Source: a virus. From it: a DNA stretch of 64,000 nt. Below are positions 26,068-64,000 of the stretch, in pieces. Under the pieces are notes generated by a model. That model did not search any database and was not told the origin of the DNA. It was given only the letters and a program-made list of their open reading frames with translations. Where the stretch lies: positions 32,001 through 96,000 of the IMG/VR virus record IMGVR_UViG_3300023440_000001; one strand, 5' to 3'. Numbering within the stretch: position 1 is the stretch's first letter; each line of letters opens with the position of its first letter. Position numbers and translations under genes: made by a program.

Positions 26068-26147
26068 TAAACTAACCAAGAACATTGAGAAGACCCCGAT
26101 AGCCATTCAGGTTGTCGGAGTTTTCTGTTAGAAAAGAGGTAAAGACA

Positions 26148-27203
26148 ATGTTAGAAGCCCTCAAATCCTGGTGGGTCATCGTCCAGAACACAGGAAAGTG
26201 CTTTGGATGTGCCTACTGTATCATTTCACAACGAAAGGATTTAGGTGGGATGTATGCAGAGGTGGCTATCGGTGACTTGCCATCGAAGTATCTGGGTGAT
26301 CGTGGACGTGACATCCCCGTGGTTATTGATAACTACTTCGGGGATCCGTCCACACAACAGGATCACCTGAGACAGGCCCTGATGGCCTTAAAAGAAGACG
26401 GCCATCGTGGACCTATTGGCATCATCACAAAAGGGAAGTTCGGCCGACAGACGATTGATCTGTTGGCCAGCATTCCCAATGTGGTGGTGCTGCAGTCCAT
26501 ATCGGGACTGCCTAGAAGCATAGAACCCGCAAAACTGGAGACGCGTGTCGAGAATATGCGTCGTCTGGTGGAGGCAGGGATTAAGACTATCGCTTACCTG
26601 CGACCAATTATCGCAGGGTATAATGATAGCCCAGAATCCCTGCAACGGGTTCTGAATCTAATTAAGCTCACCGGAGTCGATACCGTTGTGTACTCCGGCT
26701 TCCGGATAACAGAAGAGACCCGGAAACTGATGGAAGCCAACGGTATTGACATGTCTGGTTTCAAGGAAGATCCGGAACACAAACAGATGCCGGAAGAGGC
26801 TCGTGAATTCATCGAGACTTACGGACACTCAATCGGATTGAAGGTGTTCCGGAAGACTTCCTGCGGGGTTAGCTATCTGTTGGGCACGTCAGACTATAAT
26901 GCCCACTGGAGTAATCCCACAAAGTACGAGTGCCAGAACTGCCCAAATCTCGGCAAATGTTTGCCGAAGTTAAAGTCAGTGGCAGTCCGGGAATCCGTAT
27001 GCAAACCCAAATGTCCACACCAATGTTCCAGTTGCCCATTCTTGAAGGACAACCAGGTACATCTGACTGGTAAATGGACCCTGGGTGAGTTATCAGTAGC
27101 CCGGTGGATACTTGGTCAGCAGGTAACGGCTGGGGAGATTATTAACACGCCGGGTATACTGAATGTTGAAAAGCTCCGCAACTTAAAGAAGGAGGTGAAA
27201 TAA
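26148..27203 (+). CDS. Radical SAM protein (SPL-like), atypical Cx2Cx2C, Cys-rich C-terminus
   Basis: CFGCAYC, ITKG, IEP...R, LRPIIAGYND; C-terminal Cys clusters. Confidence 0.75.
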   Translation: MLEALKSWWVIVQNTGKCFGCAYCIISQRKDLGGMYAEVAIGDLPSKYLGDRGRDIPVVIDNYFGDPSTQQDHLRQALMALKEDGHRGPIGIITKGKFGRQTIDLLASIPNVVVLQSISGLPRSIEPAKLETRVENMRRLVEAGIKTIAYLRPIIAGYNDSPESLQRVLNLIKLTGVDTVVYSGFRITEETRKLMEANGIDMSGFKEDPEHKQMPEEAREFIETYGHSIGLKVFRKTSCGVSYLLGTSDYNAHWSNPTKYECQNCPNLGKCLPKLKSVAVRESVCKPKCPHQCSSCPFLKDNQVHLTGKWTLGELSVARWILGQQVTAGEIINTPGILNVEKLRNLKKEVK

Positions 27204-28141
27204 TGAAGACCTTCTTTAAGCCCAGTGGAGCTGCATGTCCACAAGGCTGTGCGTATTGCATTGTGGACATGAATCCCAACCGCCGGAAGGAGTATCTGGA
27301 GTCAGTTCTGTACTTCATGAACTCCTTCGTGGCGATAAACATCATGCCTGAACGGAGGGACCAACATCTTGAAGAGATTCGAAACCTCGATTGGTCCCTC
27401 TTTTCGGGTGACTATCTGGGATTCCAGGGTGCATCAGAACCATTAATGTACAAACGTACCCTGTTTGATATCCTGGGCAAGGCCAGGCAATTCGGCTTCA
27501 AGGTAGCGATTTGTTCCAAGCTATCCATCGGCCGAAGATTGGCAAAAGAGCTGGCCGAGTTTCGGGATGTCTTGGACATTGAGATTTCATATGCCAAGCT
27601 CTCGGAACTGGAAAGGTCGGACGCCAAACGCCTGGCATCGATAGGAAATGCCCTGGAAGCTGGTTTCGACGTGCTGACAGTCATTCAGCCGTTTATATAC
27701 GGTTTGACGGATGTCAGACTCGAAGAGCTGATCCGGGAGCTGAAGAGCGTGGGAGCCACCTACGTCTCTGTGAATGGCTTCCGATATTCCAAGGCAATGG
27801 AATGGTGGGCCAGGCAGGTACTTCCACATCACATACTCCAGATGTATAGGGAGAATGAGGGTGTGGAATACCTGCCTGATCGGGGTCAGATAGAAGCCCG
27901 ACTAACAGCGGCCGGGTTCAAGGTAACCAAGATCTCTAAATGGTTACGAAGGAATGAATCCGGACGCTACAAGGACCCTGCCGAGGTGATTTCGAATATG
28001 AAACGTCTGGTTGGATTTAAAAGTCAAATAGACCCTTCTAATCCTGATTGGAGGGTCTGCGATAACGAACATCTTCGCGTAGCAAGCGATAGCAATAGTG
28101 AGATGCTTGCAAAGATGTTCGAAAGGAGAATGAACTTCTAA
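27203..28141 (+). CDS. Radical SAM protein (SPL-like)
   Basis: CPQGCAYC, SEP, IQPFIYGLTD. Confidence 0.8.
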   Translation: MKTFFKPSGAACPQGCAYCIVDMNPNRRKEYLESVLYFMNSFVAINIMPERRDQHLEEIRNLDWSLFSGDYLGFQGASEPLMYKRTLFDILGKARQFGFKVAICSKLSIGRRLAKELAEFRDVLDIEISYAKLSELERSDAKRLASIGNALEAGFDVLTVIQPFIYGLTDVRLEELIRELKSVGATYVSVNGFRYSKAMEWWARQVLPHHILQMYRENEGVEYLPDRGQIEARLTAAGFKVTKISKWLRRNESGRYKDPAEVISNMKRLVGFKSQIDPSNPDWRVCDNEHLRVASDSNSEMLAKMFERRMNF

Positions 28142-28988: not shown

Positions 28989-29193
28989 GCTAATGAGGCC
29001 TCCTCTCTGGGGGTCCGGGCAGAGTTTCCTCCTCCTTTTGCTCACCCGGGCTCCCAGTGAGTAGGTTCGCCCATCCGACTTACACCGCTATTCATAGGTG
29101 ACTGCCCCTAGGTTGGGGTCAGTCGGCAATGGGCACTGTGGCACCACGCCGGGCATGTCGCCGAAGTGGTGTCCAGCCATGGAGGAGTATACC

Positions 29194-29520
29194 ATGGCTA
29201 TCTATAATATGGAATTGAGTCAAACTTCAATGTCCGCCCCGAACGGTGGACCTGTATTCTTATTAAAGGTCGGGTTCGGCGACCCGGCAACCAACGCCGA
29301 GATCGTTCCGTTCGTCGCCGAAAACGCTCCCGACGCAAACGGCGCAGTACTGTTAATTAACGGGCCCGCCAGCCTTCCGGTGGCAATGGCGCTGGCTCAC
29401 AAATACGCTCATGTATTCGGGGCCGTGGCGGCCTTCGACCCGAAGTTATCCGGGTACGTAGTCGCCATTAGCCACGATCCCGAGTTACCGGTCGGCAAAG
29501 TGCTGAAGTTCGATATGTAA
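29194..29520 (+). CDS. csx3: Csx3/Crn3-family CRISPR ring nuclease
   Basis: LKVGFGDPA...INGPASLPVAMALAHKYAHVFGAVAAFDPKL...YVVAISHDP; His-x8-Asp spacing; GGAGGAG RBS. Confidence 0.8.
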   Translation: MAIYNMELSQTSMSAPNGGPVFLLKVGFGDPATNAEIVPFVAENAPDANGAVLLINGPASLPVAMALAHKYAHVFGAVAAFDPKLSGYVVAISHDPELPVGKVLKFDM

Positions 29521-29559: not shown

Positions 29560-29623
29560 CGTCGACCGGGCGACGTAAAATAGGCCTTAGGCCCGGTGCG
29601 GCTCCGCTTCGGCGGAGCGTGGT
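29560..29623 (+). ncRNA. Pistol self-cleaving ribozyme
   Basis: P1 CGTCG/CGACG, loop ACCGGG pairs CCCGGT, AAA linker, UAG, P2 GCC/GGT, GCG, P3 GCTCCGC-TTCG-GCGGAGC, GU site 29619/29620. Confidence 0.85.
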
Positions 29624-29638
29624 AACCAAACAACAGAG

Positions 29639-30004
29639 GTGACCATGATCGATATTAAACGTGCCACATCGGGCGTCTATGCCGCTGGGCGCCTGATGAA
29701 TGACATAACTGCGGCGGCAATTCGCCTTGCGGATGAGCCGGCTGTCCGCGAGGCTATCAAAGCCGGGAAGGAAGTCATCGTTGATGTAGACTTCCGGACC
29801 GGTGAAGTCCGGCTGATAACCAACCCCAGCCGGGTCGGTGAATACCTGGCAAAGGCCGAACGTGTCTTCGAGCCCAGCCAGGTCACCGAAATGCCCTGGC
29901 CGCATTGGTGCCATGCCATGTGCGAAGCCGGGGCACAATGGACGGACTTCATCTACAAAGATGACATTGTAAATGAAGTCCGTGCCTGGCTGGATCAGCT
30001 GTAA
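29639..30004 (+). CDS. Hypothetical early protein
   Basis: 121-aa ORF right after ribozyme. Confidence 0.65.
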   Translation: MTMIDIKRATSGVYAAGRLMNDITAAAIRLADEPAVREAIKAGKEVIVDVDFRTGEVRLITNPSRVGEYLAKAERVFEPSQVTEMPWPHWCHAMCEAGAQWTDFIYKDDIVNEVRAWLDQL

Positions 30005-43948: not shown

Positions 43949-45067
43949 ATGTTAAAGGTTCAAGAGTTCTTGAGTGAAAACAGTCTGGATGACTTAAAGG
44001 AACGTTATGCGATCAAGATTAAACGTCATCCCTACTTCCAGAATCTGGTTCACTTTTCTTATGATATGCTGAATTCGCCCCTGGGTGAACCCATTGTTCA
44101 GGAATGTCGTGGTCTGATTCTTGATCAGGATGATAACTGGAAGGTAGTGGCATTTCCATATAGGAAGTTCTTCAATTATGGTGAACCACATGCCGCTCAG
44201 ATTGACTGGAACAGTGCCCAGGTATTTGAGAAACTGGATGGTACGCTGATCATACTGTATAAGTACGATGGTGTATGGCATGTGGCAACCACTGGCACAC
44301 CTGACGCAGGTACCAATGTAAACGGATTTGGCTTCAGCTTTAGTGATCTGTTCTGGAGAGTATGGGATGGGTATCGATACCCGCTTCCGGAAGGAATGGA
44401 TGATTATACGTTCATGTTTGAGTTGATGACACCCTATAATCAGGTTGTAGTTCGTCAAAATGGAAATCGTATTGTTCTACATGGAATGCGAAATAACCAT
44501 ACCCTGGAAGAAGAGAATCCCCGTCTGGCAGCGGCACTATTCAGATATGAATGTGTTCGCTCGTTCGACTTCCATTCCATAGATGAAGTTGTTGCCGCTG
44601 CGGAAGAACTGGACTTTCAGAAGCAGGAAGGCTTTGTGATAGTCGATGCCTATTATAATCGCTTGAAGGTGAAGAACCCCAAGTATGTCTTCTATCATCA
44701 CATCAAGTCCAGTTTCTCTATAAAGAAGGCTGTGGACATTATCCGTAAGGGTGAGTCAGCGGAGTTCATTTCCTACTTTCCGGAGCTGGCGGAAATGGTG
44801 CATCGAATTGAGCAACGCTATGATGAACTAGTTCATCGAGCTAACGGCCTTTATGAGCTCTATAAAGACATTGAATCCGACAAAGAGTTTGCCCGGTATG
44901 CTCTACAACATGATGTTGCTCACGTTCTGTTTGCACTTCGACATGGTAAGGCGCGCTCCCCTCAAGAGTTCTTAAAACACGTTCATATGGATGCTATTAT
45001 GCGCCTTCTTCAGGTCCAGGACCTCGAAAGTCAACTGCTTAATTTAAACACGGAGGATCTATCTTGA
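43949..45067 (+). CDS. rnlA: T4 Rnl1-like RNA ligase
   Basis: ECRGLI, KFFN, EKLDG, FEL, EGFV, KVK. Confidence 0.92.
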   Translation: MLKVQEFLSENSLDDLKERYAIKIKRHPYFQNLVHFSYDMLNSPLGEPIVQECRGLILDQDDNWKVVAFPYRKFFNYGEPHAAQIDWNSAQVFEKLDGTLIILYKYDGVWHVATTGTPDAGTNVNGFGFSFSDLFWRVWDGYRYPLPEGMDDYTFMFELMTPYNQVVVRQNGNRIVLHGMRNNHTLEEENPRLAAALFRYECVRSFDFHSIDEVVAAAEELDFQKQEGFVIVDAYYNRLKVKNPKYVFYHHIKSSFSIKKAVDIIRKGESAEFISYFPELAEMVHRIEQRYDELVHRANGLYELYKDIESDKEFARYALQHDVAHVLFALRHGKARSPQEFLKHVHMDAIMRLLQVQDLESQLLNLNTEDLS

Positions 45068-45939
45068 ATCTGTCCAAAGTCATTCTCATGCTAAAAGGTT
45101 TACCAGCATCTGGTAAATCTACCTGGGCTAAAGAGCAAATAGATGAGCATCCCGGTCGATTCAAACGGGTCAACAAAGATGATCTGCGGGCAATGCTGGA
45201 TAACTCCCGCTGGTCAAGGGCTAATGAGAAGTTCGTTCTGAAGGTGCGCGACTTTATCGTCTCTCAGGCGTTGGAAGATGGATATTCGGTTATTGTTGAC
45301 GATACCAATCTCCATCCCAGACATGAGATCCGCCTGAAGGAGATTGCTCGTGAAAAGAAGGCTGATTTCGAAGTCAAGGAGTTTACGGATGTTCCTATTG
45401 AAGAGTGTATCAAGCGAGATCTGAAACGTCCTAACTCGGTTGGTCCGGATGTCATTCGACAAATGGCTCGACAGTTCAACTTGTTACAAAAGCGACCGGT
45501 ACCGGAGCATATCCCGGATCTTCCTACGGCAATAATCTGTGATCTGGACGGAACACTGGCTCTACTAAATGGTCGCAATCCTTATGACGCTTCTGACTGT
45601 GTGAACGACCTGTTAAACAGGCCAGTGGCTCAGCTGCTTAAAACCATTTGCAGAAGCCGTCCGGAAGTAAAGATCCTTCTGGTTTCAGGTCGTGAACAGA
45701 AGTATATGCATCAGACCTGGGACTGGTTAGAAAAGCATGATATTCCCTATGATTACTTGTTCATGCGTTGTACGGGTGATACTCGTAAGGACGCGATCAT
45801 TAAACGAGAGATCTATGATTACTATATACGGAATCAGTTTAATGTCTGGTTTGTACTGGATGATCGCCGTCAAGTAGTTGAGATGTGGCGCGACGAACTG
45901 GGTCTCCCGGTCTTTCAGGTAGACTGGGGTGAGTTCTAA
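45064..45939 (+). CDS. pseT: Polynucleotide 5'-kinase/3'-phosphatase
   Basis: GLPASGKST kinase + DLDGT HAD phosphatase, DDR. Confidence 0.93.
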   Translation: MNLSKVILMLKGLPASGKSTWAKEQIDEHPGRFKRVNKDDLRAMLDNSRWSRANEKFVLKVRDFIVSQALEDGYSVIVDDTNLHPRHEIRLKEIAREKKADFEVKEFTDVPIEECIKRDLKRPNSVGPDVIRQMARQFNLLQKRPVPEHIPDLPTAIICDLDGTLALLNGRNPYDASDCVNDLLNRPVAQLLKTICRSRPEVKILLVSGREQKYMHQTWDWLEKHDIPYDYLFMRCTGDTRKDAIIKREIYDYYIRNQFNVWFVLDDRRQVVEMWRDELGLPVFQVDWGEF

Positions 45940-53574: not shown

Positions 53575-54708
53575 ATGAGCGGTGCTTCTTTAGAAGAGAA
53601 GATGGAACGTGCACAGGCCTTTCTCAAACAGTATTCCAAGGCTGTTGAGAAGAAAGGCTCCACAGTAGTTGCTGATTTTGCCAGTAAACTGCCGGAGAAC
53701 TACCGTTCCTTCCCCAGATTGCCCCTGGGTATTCCCAGCCTGGATCGTTTCTTTGGCGGCGGCGTACCCATGGGTGGTGTAATTACCTGTGCAGGTGATA
53801 CCAGTGTGGGTAAGACCACATTCCTGTTGCGCCTGATAGCAGCAGCCCAGAAACAGGGCAAGTTATGTTTGCTGGCTGATGCAGAAGGTACCTTTGATAC
53901 CAACTGGGCACTTAAACAGGGTGTGGATGTAGAAAAGCTGGTAGTCCTGCAGCCCGGATTACCGCCGGAGGAAGAGTTTACACCGACCACTCTGGAAGAC
54001 TACTGGAATGGTATAATCCAGGCAGCCAATTCCAATATCTTTGACTTCTTTGGCCTGGATTCGCTGGATGCCATGATTGCTCGTGGCCGGCTGCAATCCA
54101 AGAAAGGCAAAGCCCGGGATCTGGACGATGCCGACGTGGCCTTAAAGGCCCGAGTATTATCAGATGCCTATCCCCGGGTACTGGGTGCCTGCCGGGCCAA
54201 TGCCATTACCTTCTTTCAAATCGCTCAACTGAGAACCACCGGTATTGGTAGTGCCTTTGTCAAGAACGATATCTCCGGGGGTAACGCCCGGAAGTATTAT
54301 GATATTCTAACACTGCACATTCGTCGTGGCTCTAAAAGTGAGGCACCGGTTGATGGTAATAAACCACTGGGCTTCAAGTTTATCATGGAAGCTCGTAAAT
54401 CCAAGATCGGTGGAATCAGAGAAGGAGATGCTGTGGAGACTATCTTCTTCTTTGATAAGGGTTTCGACCCTGTTTATGAACTAGTGGTAGAAGCCATTGA
54501 GCGCGGTGTTATTGCCAAGAAAGGTAATGCAGCGGCCACTTTTACTACCACTTCCGGTGAAGTCCATAACATTAAAGCCGGTAAAGAGTATAAGATTGCC
54601 GCCTATATTGATGAGAATGGACTGTTTGATGACCTGCGTCTGCAGGTAACCGGTGAAGTGAGTGAAGAAGCGGAAACCGTGGATGAAACAACGGCTGAAG
54701 CTTCCTGA
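53575..54708 (+). CDS. recA: RecA/UvsX-like recombinase
   Basis: GGGVPMG, GDTSVGKTT, DAEG, LDSL, QLR, SGGNARKYY; start behind AAGGAG. Confidence 0.9.
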   Translation: MSGASLEEKMERAQAFLKQYSKAVEKKGSTVVADFASKLPENYRSFPRLPLGIPSLDRFFGGGVPMGGVITCAGDTSVGKTTFLLRLIAAAQKQGKLCLLADAEGTFDTNWALKQGVDVEKLVVLQPGLPPEEEFTPTTLEDYWNGIIQAANSNIFDFFGLDSLDAMIARGRLQSKKGKARDLDDADVALKARVLSDAYPRVLGACRANAITFFQIAQLRTTGIGSAFVKNDISGGNARKYYDILTLHIRRGSKSEAPVDGNKPLGFKFIMEARKSKIGGIREGDAVETIFFFDKGFDPVYELVVEAIERGVIAKKGNAAATFTTTSGEVHNIKAGKEYKIAAYIDENGLFDDLRLQVTGEVSEEAETVDETTAEAS

Positions 54709-55052
54709 TCATTGTATTAATCCGGGTTCCAGTAGTTATCCGGGACCCGGGTCAAACCCATTGATTGGAGGTATATAGATGGGTGAGCAGCTCATATCTT
54801 CAGGTGGTACATTCCATTATCTTGGCAGCTTTGAGGGTCATGATCTATATATCTGTAGTGATTACGATGTACCCGAAGACATGGTACTATTTGTTAATAG
54901 AGATCGCATGACCGATGAACCTTATGAACCTGGCATGTTTCACGGATGGACTGTCGACGAAGTCGCAGACTATTTAAGTATGCTCGAGTTTGACTTCTCT
55001 CAGCTGTTTAATGATGATGCTCGAGCATGATTCGAATCGAAGGAGTATTAAA

Positions 55053-55379
55053 ATGGATGAGAAAACCAAATGTATCCGTGAACTCAATGATAGGTTTCGG
55101 AAGACCTTTAGAGGTGGTATTATTCGAATCACTACCGGTATTGGAGCTCGTCCCGATGTTGATGAAATCATGGAAGCTGTCCGTAACTTTGACGACTTTA
55201 ATCCGGACAACGATCCCTACGGCGAGCATGACTTTGGTGCCATAACGTTAAAAGATGGTACCCGCATATTCTGGAAGATTGACTACTACGATGTGTCTCT
55301 TAAATACCATTCTCTGAAGCCAGCCGATGAGATAGTGACTACGAGAGTATTGACTGTTATGTTGGCTTCAGAGTATTAA
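55053..55379 (+). CDS. DUF3768-like protein
   Basis: LNDRFR, NDPYGEHDFG, FWKIDYYD, RVLTVMLASEY. Confidence 0.8.
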   Translation: MDEKTKCIRELNDRFRKTFRGGIIRITTGIGARPDVDEIMEAVRNFDDFNPDNDPYGEHDFGAITLKDGTRIFWKIDYYDVSLKYHSLKPADEIVTTRVLTVMLASEY

Positions 55380-55862
55380 CTGAATATCAGGAGTGCTAAT
55401 ATGAAAGCCATTCATATCTATTTTGAAGATGATGCACCTATTGGTGGCTACATTGGCGAGCAGCTGGAAGATGCAATTGCTCGTGTCATTGGTGAACAAT
55501 TCGGTTTATCCGCTCGGGTTGAGAGTGAGATAACCCATGGCATAACCCAATCCAGTACATTCATGCCAAAAGCTTTTAAGATATGGACCAGTAACTTTGT
55601 GGAATGGTTATTCGGAGTAAGGGATGCTTCGTTTAAGTCCGTACAGAACAAGTTGTTGAAGATTGGTGTCAGCTACATATATGATAACTATAAGACTATT
55701 TCTGATCTAATCTGTGAACTGGGTGTTATACCTATTTCTCTAATCTGGAACATGGAGGAATTGGATCTACCAGAGCAGATAATAAATGATGAAGAGATCA
55801 ATCGGGATAACCTGGAAAAGCATATGGAAGAGTGGCCGGTTAAATGGCTGTTATAGATTAAT

Positions 55863-56010
55863 GGCAGGGTGGCGGAACGGTAGACGCAGAGACTGAGAGC
55901 AACTCGGGTGGTCTGTATCATTGCTCTGAAACGGTCGGGATTATCCCCGTAGCCAAAACCGTACGATGGATTGACGCACCGTGCAGGGTTCGAGTCCCTG
56001 CCCCTGCCCA
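55863..56010 (+). ncRNA. Oversized tRNA-like RNA (148 nt)
   Basis: Leu-type acceptor and D-arm GGCAGGGTGGCGGAACGGTAGACGC, T-arm GGGTTCGAGTCCC; about 95-nt middle with no canonical anticodon arm. Confidence 0.7.
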
Positions 56011-56024
56011 GAGTCAATTATCAC

Positions 56025-56151
56025 GGCGGGGTGGCGAAATTGGTAGACGCTGCGACCCAGACGCTGACGAAGAAGGGGCAACTCGAAGCCCTATAAAGGA
56101 TGGGTTATAGGACGCTTCGTCGTGCGGGTTCAAATCCCGCCCCCGCCGCCA
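56025..56151 (+). ncRNA. Oversized tRNA-like RNA (127 nt, G73 + CCA)
   Basis: Perfect 7-bp acceptor, 5-bp T-stem, encoded CCA; weak anticodon arm; branched extended variable arm. Confidence 0.75.
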
Positions 56152-56491
56152 TTTATTAAGGAGAGGATTATGCACTGCGTAGAATGTAACTCCAATAAGT
56201 TACAACGGGAGATGTTTGAAAAGACCGGTACCTGTCCATTATGTAACGGTCACCGCCACATCAGTTTCCATCGCTACGTCCAGTGGAAACTGGGTTTTGT
56301 ACTATGGCTTAATGATGATGGAAATCATGCACCGGTGGAAACTATGAAGCAACGCTGCGAAGACATGATTCTCAGGTGTTATAGAGAGTATCACAAAAAC
56401 CGACTCCCGATTATCAAACCCTATCCACTTGATCACGGGAGTCCGGTAGACGTAGTAGCATATTACATTGATCAGTTTAAGGAATAGAGCA

Positions 56492-57679
56492 ATGAATATA
56501 AGCAACTATGTTGACTGTATGATACTCCGTGTTATTGCTGGCTCCCATGCGTACGATATGGCCACGGAACATTCCGATCTGGATGTAAAGGGTATCTTGA
56601 TACCGCCGTATGAATATCTGCTGGGTATCTACACGTTTGAACAGACCGAAGGTGATATGAAAGACGACCCCCTGGAGCAGATCGGTCTGGATCCAACACT
56701 ACTTCGTAACGGTGGTGAGTTTACTTACTATTCTCTTCAGAAGTACTTTAAGCTGGCTCGGGATTGTAATCCTTCGATTCTGGAACTCCTGTTTTCAGAT
56801 CCAAAGCATTATATATGGGATGGAATTACACCTGAGAACAGGCGGTTGGGTGAGCTGCTGATTCGTAATCGTCGTCTGTTTCTATCTCAGAAGGTACGCT
56901 TTACTTATACCGGCTATGCACACGCCCAGCTGAAACGCATTAAAGGTCACAATAAATGGTTGACCAATCCACAGCCCGAAGAGAAGCCCCGACCGGTAAA
57001 CTTCATGAAGTTCTATCCCCTCAATATACATGAACAGCCAGCACTGTTTTATACCGCTCACATTGCCCTGGAAGATGATCCGGATTTTGAGAAGTGGATA
57101 TTGAAGTATGGTTTACAATCAATGGGTGCTAAACCAATTCCCGGCACCGACAACAAAGCCTTCTTTCTGTACCAGAAGGGCAGGGGAATAGTCGATTCCT
57201 CAGGCGCTCTGTTATCTGACTATTCCTATAACTACGATCCGGATAGCCCTGTCATTGGTATCCTGGTCTTCCAGCGAGACGAGTATCGCTCTCAGCTGAA
57301 GAAGTGGAAGGAATACTGGGATTGGGTACGTAATCGTAACCCGGCCAGAAGTGAGCTTGAGAAGAAGTATGGCTACGATACTAAGCACGCTGCCCATCTT
57401 ATCCGGCTATTGCGCACCGGTTACGAGCTAATGAGTACCGGCGAACTCCATGTTCTACGCCCGGATGCCGAAGAGCTTCTGGCTATCCGCAACGGTGCCT
57501 GGAGTTACAAGCAGCTGATTGATCATGCCGAAGAGACGGAGCAGAAGATCATCGAATTATATGACAGCCCATACTGTCCGCTTCCGATGAAGCCGGACAT
57601 CAAGAAGATTAACCAGCTCTATTTGGAGATGATAGAGCCGATAATCAGCAGGAGATTGAGCAATGAAGGTTCTTATTAG
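56492..57679 (+). CDS. Pol-beta-superfamily nucleotidyltransferase (YcgL/RlaP-like)
   Basis: GSHAY...SDLDVKG, NPSILELL, YDTKHAAHLIRLL. Confidence 0.88.
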   Translation: MNISNYVDCMILRVIAGSHAYDMATEHSDLDVKGILIPPYEYLLGIYTFEQTEGDMKDDPLEQIGLDPTLLRNGGEFTYYSLQKYFKLARDCNPSILELLFSDPKHYIWDGITPENRRLGELLIRNRRLFLSQKVRFTYTGYAHAQLKRIKGHNKWLTNPQPEEKPRPVNFMKFYPLNIHEQPALFYTAHIALEDDPDFEKWILKYGLQSMGAKPIPGTDNKAFFLYQKGRGIVDSSGALLSDYSYNYDPDSPVIGILVFQRDEYRSQLKKWKEYWDWVRNRNPARSELEKKYGYDTKHAAHLIRLLRTGYELMSTGELHVLRPDAEELLAIRNGAWSYKQLIDHAEETEQKIIELYDSPYCPLPMKPDIKKINQLYLEMIEPIISRRLSNEGSY

Positions 57680-57723
57680 AGTTAAGGCCATTTAACTGGT
57701 GATTGAATATAAGGAGTATAACT

Positions 57724-58101
57724 ATGATTGTGTTCTACTGGGGAGATATCGCTGGCTTTCTGGAAGAGGAAGCCGATCGTATCAAAGATGCCCTGGAAGA
57801 GGCTGGTATTCAGTATAGCCGGTTCGAAATCAAAGAGCAGCCACAATGTTTAGGTGAGCGATTCGATGTGTTATTCTTTGACTGGGGTGGTATGTCAGTC
57901 GGTAATAATATGCTTGATCACTATTGTCGGCGTATACTGCAACATGCCAAAGACCATCCCGGTAGAGTCTATGTCATGGTATCGGCTATGACCAGTTATG
58001 CTATGCGAGATGCACTAGAAACGTTTGGATCAGATCGCCCGGCGAATCTGTTTCTGGAAATAGATGAAGCATTAAGCTTTCTTAAACAGTTAAACCAATA
58101 A
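57724..58101 (+). CDS. Receiver-like fold protein
   Basis: FDVLFFDWGG, VMVSA. Confidence 0.4.
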   Translation: MIVFYWGDIAGFLEEEADRIKDALEEAGIQYSRFEIKEQPQCLGERFDVLFFDWGGMSVGNNMLDHYCRRILQHAKDHPGRVYVMVSAMTSYAMRDALETFGSDRPANLFLEIDEALSFLKQLNQ

Positions 58102-58129: not shown

Positions 58130-58585
58130 ATGAGACCAGCTCCCTATACGTTTTACAAAGGTAAGGCCGCCATGCGGTTGAGTATCATTCCCCCGAAAGA
58201 GGTCCAGAAAGGACAGTATTCTAATACCGATCCGGGAATGATCCTAATGGAAATCGCTCCGGCAAAGGGTAAACAGTCCTATGATTGGGACAATAAGATC
58301 GTGTTCTCCCTGAGCCCGGCGGAAGTTGCCACAATTGAAGTGAACCGGCTGATGAAGAAAGAGACCAGCCTGTTTCATGATCCGAATATGAAGTCGGACA
58401 AACAGGGCCAGGTTACCAAAAGCTTAAAGATCAGCCAGACCGACAGCGGTGGCTACATGTTCACCCTGTTTGAAACCAACAACGGCAACAAACACCATGT
58501 CTCCATCATTCTTTCAGCTGCCGAATACTATTTGTTTCGCATGCTGGTAGAGAATGGTGTGTTAAAGACATTAGCCTGGGTATGA
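58130..58585 (+). CDS. Whirly-family ssDNA-binding protein
   Basis: YKGKAAM, APA, YDW, K.VFSLS..E, FHDP, K.LK motifs in plant Whirly order. Confidence 0.75.
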   Translation: MRPAPYTFYKGKAAMRLSIIPPKEVQKGQYSNTDPGMILMEIAPAKGKQSYDWDNKIVFSLSPAEVATIEVNRLMKKETSLFHDPNMKSDKQGQVTKSLKISQTDSGGYMFTLFETNNGNKHHVSIILSAAEYYLFRMLVENGVLKTLAWV

Positions 58586-61311: not shown

Positions 61312-61966
61312 TCTATATTATCACCAACAACTATCAATCTGCCAAAGCGTTCGCTTATTCCCGAAACTGGGCACTGAACAGTTATCGAATTATAACAACC
61401 GAGACAGAGTTACATGGGCTAAAGTTTGATAAGTCAGATGAATTCTATGTAGTTGAGGTGCCGGATCAGGAGCCAATTAGTCCCGGCGTCTTTCTCCGTT
61501 TACAGTTTGAAATGGAGAAGATCAAGTCTGAATTGGATTTGCTTTCTGATTTGAAGGAGAATGTGGGAGCGGAAGACGACTTCGTTATTTAATAGAGGAG
61601 GATACTCATGGCAGTATTTGATCTGAGAACTATCTATTCCGGTAAGATCGAAGTTACCCGGAAGGAGCTAAAGGACATCAACAGAATCAGTCGTCAGGTT
61701 CACGACAACATCAAGGAAGTGTTCCTTGCTTTTCTGGAGAATCGTGAACAGGACTATGTAAGGCAGAAGATTGCAGAGCTGGCCGTTCATGAAGCTGAAT
61801 TGTCCAGTCTGGAAACCGAGATGCTTGGTAGTAATACCGACTCGATAGTAATCGAGAAGGTAAAGATGACTCTGAGTGCTGTCCGAAGAGCACAACAACG
61901 GCTGGAGAGAATCCTGAGCTCTCTGCAAAACGAAGCTAATAACGCAACCTAATGGGAGTGTCTGCG

Positions 61967-64000
61967 ATGAACTGGCAAGTAAACGATTCCAGTAAGCTGC
62001 GAGCGTTTCGAGAGAGTTTGACTGAGTGCTACTTATGCCCCCTTTACTCTGAACTGGGAAAGACTGCTGGCAGTGCCAAAGGTCTGGCCCCGGTCGTGAG
62101 TAGAGGAGAAGGTCGGGTTATGTTTATTGGTATGGCACCTTCTAATGTAGAACATAACACTGGCAAACCATTTGGTGAGGCACTTGGTGAGACGTTGGCA
62201 GAACTGATGAAGAAGCATGTGGGCCTGTTGATTGATGTGGATACATATATGACCAACCTGATCAAGTGTAATCCTTATACCAAACCGACGAATATGAAAC
62301 GTGGTCATATGCGGAACTGTTCGATTCACCTGGGAAAGGAACTGGAACTGGTGGACCCGGTAATTGTGGTGTTCATGGGTAAGGATATCTTTAATGCTAT
62401 TGGCTACGCAGATGAGCTTCCTGGTATTGGAGTGCCTTTCCAGGGAACGCTCTTTGGTAAGAAGCGCTGGATGTACGTAATGAATAATCCCGGTGTGATT
62501 ACCAAGAGTATGTCCCAGCGAAAGAGCTTTATTACTCAGCTGCGTAATCTTGCCAGGTGGTTGAAAGAGCACACGACCTTTTATCAGGATAAAGGCATGG
62601 CACCACCAGAGTTCGTGGAGTATGCCGAGCCCAGATATGTGCTGATAAATACCATTGAAAAGGCCCGCAACATGGTCAAATGGTTTAAACGCAGCGGTGC
62701 TAAATACATGGCTCTGGATACCGAAACTACCGGGCTGAATCTGTTTGACCCGAAATGGTACGTGGTTGGTGTGTCACTGTCCATTGATGAACGAGTTGGT
62801 TATTATCTACCCATTGGTCATCGTAGTCGTCCCAGCTCGCTGATTAAGAAGGATATTCAGCAGTTGACTAAAGAAGAGCTGAAGAAGATACTGGAGTACC
62901 TGCTCTTCGATCTAAAGCTCATCCCGATCTTTCATAACTACGCCTATGATTATCGGGTGTTGAAAAAGCTGGATATTCAGGTGGATAAGCTGGATCCGGA
63001 TAACAGTATCTGGTATCATGATACCATGATCCTGAGTTACCTGGAGAACGAGAACGACACGCTGGGCTTAAAAGACCTGACCTTTCGGCATTTCGGTATC
63101 CAGGCGGACAAGTTTAAAGACGTGGCTGAACATAGTAAGTTTCAGTACGTGGATCTGGAAAAGGCCACTGCTTATGCTGCGGCTGATGCAGTAAATACAC
63201 TGCGTCTGTTCAACCGGGCACGTAAGGTTGTTCATAAGGAAAGCATCACCAAGACCGGTGGAAAGCTGCTGGAACGTATCTATCCGGTTGAGTTGAAGAC
63301 TGCCCGTATCATGGCCGATGCAATTGATCTCGGTCTGGCTATTGATCTCGATTATCTGAAAGCGTTAAGACTCCGTCTGCTGAAGGAAGAGCGCGAGTTA
63401 TATGATAAACTGGATAGCTTCAATAACATTATTGATCACAGCAGCACCTATCAGCTGGACAAGTTAATGGGAAGTCTGTTGGATAATGCGTCCCGACAGA
63501 GTTATGAAGATCAGTACGGCTGGGCGGCTGACGAAGATCATCTGAAAACACTGCGAGACTTTGTGAAGAAGTCCTATGAATCCAGTAAGTTCCGCTGGAC
63601 ACCCGAGAAGCTCGATGACTATATCAAGACACTCCTGGTCTGGCGTCGAGTCAATAAGATGCTCAGTACCTACGTAGACGCTCTGATCGAGAAGCATGTG
63701 GTAGATGAAAGTGGTACCCCAATCATTCACGGTTCCTTTAAGACAATCGGAACCACCAGCGGTCGCATGTCTTCTCAGGATCCCAACCTGCAGAACCTGC
63801 CACGGGAAGCGCCCAAACCACCTAAGGTCTGTCAATACTGTGGTCATGAGACTGTTACTCTGGTAGATGGCTCCGGCCATGAGACGGTTGTCAATTGGTA
63901 TGACAGCGTGGATTCTACCGGCGGTGTTTTCACCTGTGCCAAATGCGGTAAGCAAACTTCTAACTATCAGGTGGACATTCGGCGCGCTTTCGTGGCCAGA
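61967..64000 (+). CDS. polA: Family A DNA polymerase with N-terminal UDG-like domain (partial; absent from ORF track)
   Basis: Hand translation from ATG 61967: FIGMAP/TNLIKC UDG-like domain, ALDTETTGL, FHN..YD, YAAADA exonuclease, TTSGRMSSQDPNLQNLP, DIRRAF. Confidence 0.9.
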   Translation, partial: MNWQVNDSSKLRAFRESLTECYLCPLYSELGKTAGSAKGLAPVVSRGEGRVMFIGMAPSNVEHNTGKPFGEALGETLAELMKKHVGLLIDVDTYMTNLIKCNPYTKPTNMKRGHMRNCSIHLGKELELVDPVIVVFMGKDIFNAIGYADELPGIGVPFQGTLFGKKRWMYVMNNPGVITKSMSQRKSFITQLRNLARWLKEHTTFYQDKGMAPPEFVEYAEPRYVLINTIEKARNMVKWFKRSGAKYMALDTETTGLNLFDPKWYVVGVSLSIDERVGYYLPIGHRSRPSSLIKKDIQQLTKEELKKILEYLLFDLKLIPIFHNYAYDYRVLKKLDIQVDKLDPDNSIWYHDTMILSYLENENDTLGLKDLTFRHFGIQADKFKDVAEHSKFQYVDLEKATAYAAADAVNTLRLFNRARKVVHKESITKTGGKLLERIYPVELKTARIMADAIDLGLAIDLDYLKALRLRLLKEERELYDKLDSFNNIIDHSSTYQLDKLMGSLLDNASRQSYEDQYGWAADEDHLKTLRDFVKKSYESSKFRWTPEKLDDYIKTLLVWRRVNKMLSTYVDALIEKHVVDESGTPIIHGSFKTIGTTSGRMSSQDPNLQNLPREAPKPPKVCQYCGHETVTLVDGSGHETVVNWYDSVDSTGGVFTCAKCGKQTSNYQVDIRRAFVAR

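Follow-up and report, generated by a model that had tools for sequence, protein, structure and literature searches.

Two tandem elements in a phage genome begin and end like tRNA-Leu and have something else where the anticodon arm should be, which raises the question of what such RNAs are and what they could be for. The locus belongs to the IMG/VR virus record IMGVR_UViG_3300023440_000001, a viral record of 136,294 bp (~72% complete by estimate) from a phage of microbial-mat metagenome origin; we analysed its bases 32001–96000, a stretch of 64,000 nucleotides that we call the window and whose coordinates are used throughout. E1 (148 nt, 55863–56010) and E2 (127 nt, 56025–56151) both lie on the + strand and are separated by a 14-nt spacer (56011–56024). 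The evidence supports the conclusion that both are tRNA-derived, with elbow and acceptor intact and a usable anticodon arm absent. As to their role, we favor, at odds slightly short of even (about 0.45), the reading that they are non-decoding, tRNA-scaffolded RNAs released by the tRNA-processing machinery, because the shells are intact, the anticodon arms are missing, the middle of E1 is portable and tRNA-repair genes lie nearby.

Two tRNA-Leu frames without an anticodon arm

The acceptor stem of E1, GGCAGGG/CCCTGCC, consists of seven Watson-Crick pairs out of seven (55863–55869 with 56002–56008) and is followed by a class-II Leu-type D-arm, TGGCGGAACGGTAGACGC, at 55872–55887; the D-arm is identical at 20 of 21 positions to that of the Leu-framed elements in contigs L088 and L050 described below. 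A 95-nt middle (55888–55982) that is not tRNA-like leads to the T-arm GCAGGG-TTCGAGT-CCCTGC (55983–56001), which forms six pairs, or five pairs with one extra C, and the discriminator is a C at 56009. E2 is built in the same manner: its acceptor GGCGGGG/CCCCGCC again pairs at all seven positions (56025–56031 with 56141–56147), a class-II Leu-type D-arm, GCGAAATTGGTAGACGC, stands at 56034–56050, the middle (56051–56123) is 73 nt long, and the T-arm GCGGG-TTCAAAT-CCCGC occupies 56124–56140. G73 (56148) and an encoded CCA (56149–56151) can be read directly in E2, as an earlier note on this DNA, made from the sequence alone, had stated. Both frames thus combine a 7/7 acceptor, a T-stem of 5–6 pairs and a 3/3 D-stem with U8, A14, the D-loop GG and the T-loop TTCRA. 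The sequence and a descriptor scan agree with the same note's description of two tandem tRNA-like elements of 148 and 127 nt with an intact elbow, Leu-like D-arms and T-arms.

That a canonical anticodon arm is missing, also claimed there, is supported. ARAGORN, proposed in the note as a check, calls no tRNA or tmRNA gene in the window at default settings. With introns allowed, it reports E2 alone in the 136-kb record, as a tRNA-Ile(tat) with a mismatched stem and a 47-nt intron at the non-canonical position 33/34; this call is implausible, and the same run finds no ordinary tRNA in the whole record. The Rfam tRNA model RF00005 matches E2 at 37.3 bits (gathering score 29) by leaving 63 nt inserted in the anticodon arm, and does not match E1 even at E≤10. 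A custom descriptor that requires a 7/7 acceptor, U8, a GG-containing D-arm, a T-stem of 5/5 and a TTCRA loop returns exactly E1 and E2 from the record; in 1.75 Mb of fetched loci it picks up 66 ordinary tRNAs of 70–88 nt. Neither element has a 5-bp anticodon stem with a 7-nt loop (U33, purine 37); the best candidates are GCG-ACCCAGA-CGC in E2, with 3 bp and C33, and GAG-AGCAA-CTC in E1. Given established tRNA geometry, neither RNA would be expected to decode. No Rfam ribozyme, intron, CRISPR repeat or other such family matches 55700–56300 at E≤10, and the absence of any group I match in the elements agrees with the note's exclusion of group I introns as the inserts.

The middles and their relatives in other contigs

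The arrangement is no assembly artefact, since contigs of two assemblies, made from separate samples of a single study, both cover 55000–57000 without a break. The sample contigs do not differ anywhere within 55863–56151, and one of the samples is possibly the source of the window DNA.

Two results from metagenome contigs are new here, a canonical relative of the E2 frame and a second occurrence of the E1 middle. A 315-nt contig (X2 record 8, depth 2.5) matches the E2 frame at 56027–56050 (22/24) and 56123–56145 (23/23), and its 32-nt center forms an anticodon arm (anticodon UAA) and a variable arm, both of normal shape; judged by this sequence, the contig carries a canonical tRNA-Leu(UAA). 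The shared frame identifies E2 as a tRNA-Leu(UAA)-type gene whose 32-nt center has been replaced by 72 nt. Compared by eye, an internal hairpin of E2, AGGGGC-AACTCGAA-GCCCT, resembles the anticodon arm of tRNA-Leu(UAA), AGGGGA-CTTAAAA-TCCCC, and the first hairpin of E1 resembles the variable arm GGG-AGCAA-TCCC of the tRNA-Leu(UAA) from the same metagenome. These resemblances hint that parts of the original tRNA may survive in rearranged form.

At ~90% identity over ~98 nt (55888–55985, +), the E1 middle is found again in the same metagenome, in a second contig whose flanks are unrelated. A 1692-nt contig (X2 record 7, depth 9.6) matches 55888–55985 only, with 10/98 differences, and a 194-nt contig (X1 record 2, depth 20) matches 55888–55979 only, with 9/92; both run into unrelated sequence on either side. 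Given the different flanks in the second contig, the E1 middle is a unit found in other genomic surroundings too. Four of the 9–10 differences are listed (55935, 55938, 55945, 55952), the others being near the alignment ends, and with only part of them listed the G-to-A and C-to-T changes at 55938 and 55945 are not reliable covariation. Three of the four listed substitutions are non-synonymous in an overlapping minus-strand ORF (55688–56017, 109 aa), which argues against a protein-coding explanation, and we rejected this ORF as a gene. Two further readings were set aside. The flanks of the second contig as a diverged tRNA-like frame or a terminator hairpin rested on a hand reading of 30-nt consensus ends and were too weak; mimicry of a CRISPR repeat, suggested by the E1 stem followed by CTGAAAC, found no Rfam CRISPR-DR match, and the second contig holds one 98-nt copy and no array.

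Leu-type shells without an anticodon arm are also found in three distinct viral contigs, as elements of 102–103 nt: L050:7760–7862 (−), which is the same as L088:5060–5161 (+), L075:846–948 (−) and L205:11406–11508 (+). Like E1 and E2, they have a Leu-type D-arm, a canonical T-arm and a 7-bp acceptor, and in L075 there is likewise a tandem odd pair; unlike in E1 and E2, the middle is 52 nt long, and apart from the string used for the search it shows no relation to the middles of E1 and E2. This 52-nt middle is almost invariant in the family and has no recognizable anticodon arm. The acceptor stems are wholly different between members, and the T-stem shows a compensatory change. Neither ARAGORN nor Rfam calls any of the members. 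These data indicate that phages carry Leu shells without an anticodon more than once and that selection can act on them. The L075 element is immediately followed by a 75-nt tRNA with a Leu-type D-arm (L075:714–788, −), which ARAGORN calls as tRNA-Cys(aca) with poor stems.

The search string was GCAACTCG, which the earlier note had reported from both inserts. It is indeed present in both middles; as a functional shared motif it fails, because a shared 8-mer arises in 166/2000 dinucleotide shuffles, which is chance level. A pattern of D-arm plus GCAACTCG matches at least 117 stretches of the viral contigs, mostly by chance. A version with a longer D-arm matches 11, namely seven ordinary tRNA-Leu, whose variable arm reads GAG-GCAA-CTC-G, three stretches of the 102–103-nt family, two of them duplicates, and L095. 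In the last (L095:2210–2400, +), a Leu-type D-arm leads into a long stretch without tRNA character; neither ARAGORN nor Rfam calls it.

When the folds are constrained to the tRNA frame, both elements take up a common plan, with a short hairpin at the position of the anticodon arm (GAG-AGCAA-CTC in E1, GCG-ACCCAGA-CGC in E2) and one long arm of 74 nt (E1) or 58 nt (E2) that closes 1–2 nt 5′ of the T-stem, i.e. at the position of the variable arm. The plan is a model, with predicted pair probabilities of 0.5–0.8 in E1 and lower ones in E2. The long arm GACGAAG/CTTCGTC that the note had seen in E2 does appear in minimum-energy folds, but its pair probabilities stay below 0.5. As candidate antisense targets of the middles in the phage genome, the best matches were 13-mers with E about 0.1, which we attribute to chance.

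Neighboring genes and known RNAs

The genes around E1 and E2 are densely packed and all on the + strand, and the two elements occupy the gap between an ORF of 151 aa (55401–55856, +), whose stop lies 6 nt 5′ of E1, and an ORF of 105 aa (56170–56487, +), whose start lies 18 nt 3′ of E2 and is preceded by a GGAG-type ribosome-binding site; neither product has a Pfam or PHROG match. A scan of 54600–57800 for promoter and terminator consensus sequences found nothing above chance. Together with the tight packing, this makes cotranscription of E1 and E2 with their neighbors the simplest assumption.

The next gene (56492–57679, +) encodes an RNA-repair nucleotidyltransferase of the RlaP family (PF10127, Pfam E = 3.5e-16; phrog_388, E = 3.5e-57), for which 2713 homologues were found. 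According to a preprint (PMC12776372), RlaP adds 1–2 nucleotides onto damaged RNA 3′ ends, which helps restore cut tRNAs that are short of a nucleotide before ligation. All 16 differences between the two sample contigs over 55000–57000 fall within 43 nt of this gene (56773–56815), the sequences being identical elsewhere, and the cluster could be a small recombined patch. About 10 kb upstream of E1 and E2 are two further repair genes, encoding a T4-type RNA ligase 1 (Rnl1; 43949–45067, +; PF09511, E = 8.4e-20) and a polynucleotide kinase-phosphatase (Pnkp; 45064–45939, +; PF25109, E = 1.6e-45, plus a P-loop kinase domain); their Pfam matches confirm that the Rnl1 and Pnkp invoked by the earlier note are truly encoded within the window. 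In two of the two other phages inspected, RlaP lies within ~2 kb of a tRNA nucleotidyltransferase gene, which suggests a neighborhood concerned with tRNA upkeep.

The window holds several other features. A pistol self-cleaving ribozyme (29560–29624, +) matches Rfam RF02679 over its full length at 62.5 bits (gathering score 34.5) and is flanked by a 140-aa ORF (29098–29520) and an ORF at 29639–30004. The ORF for the terminase large subunit (15–2288, −, 757 aa) is interrupted after its N-terminal terminase motif by an intein splicing domain (PF14890, E = 4.2e-10). Two neighboring weak radical-SAM matches at 26112–28141 (+), with E = 4e-4 and 5e-6 and both sub-threshold in Pfam, follow a 927-aa ORF without a family match. 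Downstream of the RlaP gene, 58130–58585 (+) encodes a single-strand-binding protein of the Whirly family (PF08536, E = 1.4e-31), and 61952–64000 (+) encodes a DNA polymerase A that carries a uracil-DNA-glycosylase-like domain at its N-terminus.

Among known phage RNAs, the closest counterparts are the T4 stable RNAs RNAD (species 2, 119 nt) and RNAC (species 1, 139 nt), annotated in tandem at the end of the T4 tRNA cluster; their function is given as still unknown in PMC3014915 and PMC9697503. Both pairs are tandem phage RNAs of ~120–140 nt of which neither is a decoding tRNA, and T4 likewise encodes Pnkp, Rnl1 and an RlaP, NrdC.11, listed as such in PMC12776372. The sequences have no evident similarity when compared by eye. 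RNAC has a T-arm and a weak terminal stem only, whereas E1 and E2 have the full acceptor/D/T frame, and unlike in T4 the order is large then small, with no ordinary tRNAs nearby.

E1 and E2 resemble class II tRNAs (Leu, Ser and bacterial Tyr, with unusual forms such as allo-tRNAs and tRNA-Sec) in their Leu-type D-arm and in a predicted long extra arm that is closed immediately 5′ of the T-stem. The extra arms here are 58 and 74 nt, whereas ordinary class II tRNAs in the scanned loci measure 80–88 nt overall, and class II tRNAs have the 5-bp anticodon stem and 7-nt U33 loop that E1 and E2 lack. The acceptor/T stack of E1, 7 + 6 = 13 bp, is reminiscent of tRNA-Sec. The combination of an acceptor and T-arm shell with a large domain in place of the anticodon arm is found in tmRNA too, but E1 and E2 have a full D-arm, and their pair 3:70 is C-G and not G-U. 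ARAGORN reports no tmRNA, the Rfam tmRNA model covers only the 17-nt T-arm at 8.9 bits (gathering score 47), and we saw no tag reading frame in either element. YrlA, a bacterial Y-RNA-like RNA, offers another parallel as a tRNA-like non-coding RNA beside RNA-repair genes: it has a tRNA-mimicking domain, is bound by Ro/Rsr and occurs in RtcB operons. The ends of YrlA are part of the Ro-binding stem, and a loop caps its acceptor-like stem, a topology opposite to that of E1 and E2; no TROVE/Ro or RtcB gene was found in the 72%-complete record, and no Rfam Y RNA model matches the elements. The same design as in E1 and E2 is known from engineered tRNA scaffold RNAs, in which a cargo RNA replaces the anticodon arm within an intact acceptor/D/T shell; those are man-made, and E1 and E2 are natural. 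A literature search that covered articles without their supplements found no description of Leu-framed, anticodon-less phage RNAs, which does not disprove their existence.

What the elements may be

As non-decoding scaffold RNAs, E1 and E2 would be tRNA-Leu-derived genes in which the anticodon and variable region were swapped for a longer unrelated segment while acceptor, D-arm and T-arm were kept. They would be transcribed together with the flanking + strand genes, and host tRNA processing (5′ cleavage by RNase P, trimming of the 3′ end and, for E1, CCA addition) would free stable RNAs of ~147 and 127 nt. Function may reside in the frame, in the middle that was inserted or in the two together; as a ligand of tRNA-recognizing proteins, the frame could engage host anticodon nucleases, synthetases or modification enzymes, or the RlaP, Pnkp and Rnl1 of the phage. 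On this view both RNAs would be naturally occurring tRNA scaffolds, of the same general kind as RNAC and RNAD of T4. Since the phage carries Pnkp, Rnl1 and RlaP, our most economical guess is that they bind or divert tRNA-recognizing proteins, such as anticodon nucleases. A more specific proposal, that the tRNA-Leu shell is an expression-and-delivery scaffold of the phage, with cargo or shell acting in the tRNA arms race (e.g. as decoys or inhibitors of anticodon nucleases or of further tRNA-binding defense proteins of the host) beside the repair set and with the E1 cargo as a portable module shared with another genome of the mat, is speculative and on balance rather unlikely.

Several observations weigh against a scaffold function. 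The T-stem of E1 is irregular (6 bp, or an extra C) and no CCA is encoded. The two middles are unrelated to each other, with no common functional core visible: alignments as good as theirs arise in 336/1000 shuffles globally and 254/1000 locally. Alone, the middles fold no better than shuffles (z = +0.14 and −0.72), the whole elements are unexceptional in fold energy (z = −1.36 and −1.45), and no covariation supports a particular fold of either middle. Searches by blastn found no orthologues of E1 or E2 in phage records or plasmids, exact-pattern scans of viral contigs gave 0 matches each for pieces of the E1 and E2 middles, and the three matches to an E1 piece in representative genomes were all chance, in coding-looking DNA. 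No RNA sequencing run containing the locus DNA is listed. Adjacency to RlaP could also be incidental. The metagenome scan for RlaP loci, made with an alignment of the best 6 of 120 listed homologues, kept 80 of 270 loci with a relative, and among these only L121 is close (52% identity); it is the closest homologue retrieved with its surroundings and has no such RNA upstream of its RlaP gene. The two closest homologues overall have 69% and 58% identity; the neighborhood comparison was made on L121. A search of viral contigs with the flanking proteins gave one distant RlaP locus, L002, which has no tRNA-like RNA.

Much of this would equally be expected if E1 and E2 were dead tRNA-Leu genes, scars of recombination or insertion with foreign DNA in the middle that serve at most as tolerated spacers. 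Both elements are singletons in the collections searched, their middles behave like shuffled sequence and share no more than a chance-level 8-mer, and the E1 middle turns up with other flanks, as moving or recombining DNA should. The canonical tRNA-Leu(UAA) with the E2 frame comes close to what the earlier note had named as refuting its proposal, i.e. relatives that have normal tRNAs with random insertions. Since no orthologue, no RNA run and no structural signal in the middles was found, dead genes remain a serious rival, although we judge them unlikely. Decay should bring mismatches, whereas the stems and conserved elbow nucleotides are flawless in both elements and the E2 frame differs from canonical tRNA-Leu(UAA) at only 2/47 positions; moreover, the second sample has the same sequence at this locus and 16 differences in the RlaP gene 600 nt away, and the compensatory stem changes in the 102–103-nt family argue that RNAs of this kind can be under selection.

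Two further explanations compete with the scaffold reading. One, put forward in the earlier note, is that E1 and E2 are precursors from which one or more intervening sequences are cut, the halves being healed and sealed by the phage enzymes. Pnkp, Rnl1 and RlaP can jointly heal and join 2′,3′-cyclic-phosphate and 5′-OH ends, a chemistry established for T4; all three are encoded here, a pistol self-cleaving ribozyme lies elsewhere in the window, and the internal E2 hairpin looks by eye like the tRNA-Leu(UAA) anticodon arm. That hairpin, however, has an 8-nt loop without U33, and no Rfam ribozyme or intron model matches the region. We removed every single stretch of 15–114 nt in silico (4005 variants of E1, 2346 of E2), ran ARAGORN on the products and used 30 shuffled middles per element as controls. 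The best scores, 112.3 for E1 and 119.7 for E2, were equalled or beaten by 14/30 and 3/30 controls, and the best products had mismatched 3–4-bp anticodon stems or, in E2, a long arm that was just shortened; no single excision gave a canonical cloverleaf in either element. Because controls match these scores, the idea of a single-intron precursor has no support in E1 and marginal support at most in E2, and we consider spliced precursors improbable. The other possibility is that the RNAs, E2 in particular through SerRS, are chargeable but non-decoding aminoacyl carriers that would supply some non-ribosomal reaction or sequester a synthetase. In bacteria, neither SerRS nor LeuRS reads the anticodon; Leu-type frames can be charged without one, and E2 offers G73, an encoded CCA and a predicted long arm at the variable-arm position. 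Set against this are the C73 and missing CCA of E1, the Leu-type rather than Ser-type D-arm of E2 and the lack of a tRNA-dependent transferase among the scanned neighbor proteins, and we consider aminoacyl carriers improbable as well.

Phage tRNAs and the tRNA-cutting defenses of hosts are an active front of the arms race between them, and the phage studied here invests in three tRNA-repair enzymes. RNAC and RNAD of T4 have stood unexplained for decades; E1 and E2 are a cleaner case, with complete tRNA-Leu shells and swapped middles, one of which recurs elsewhere, and exchanging shell or cargo in simple constructs makes the role of non-decoding phage tRNA-like RNAs testable. Should the elements prove to be dead genes, the locus would still show that tRNA genes are remodelled through replacement of the anticodon region. 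If the scaffold-and-delivery proposal is true, E1 and E2 would, together with the 102–103-nt family, define a class of anticodon-less, Leu-framed phage RNAs.

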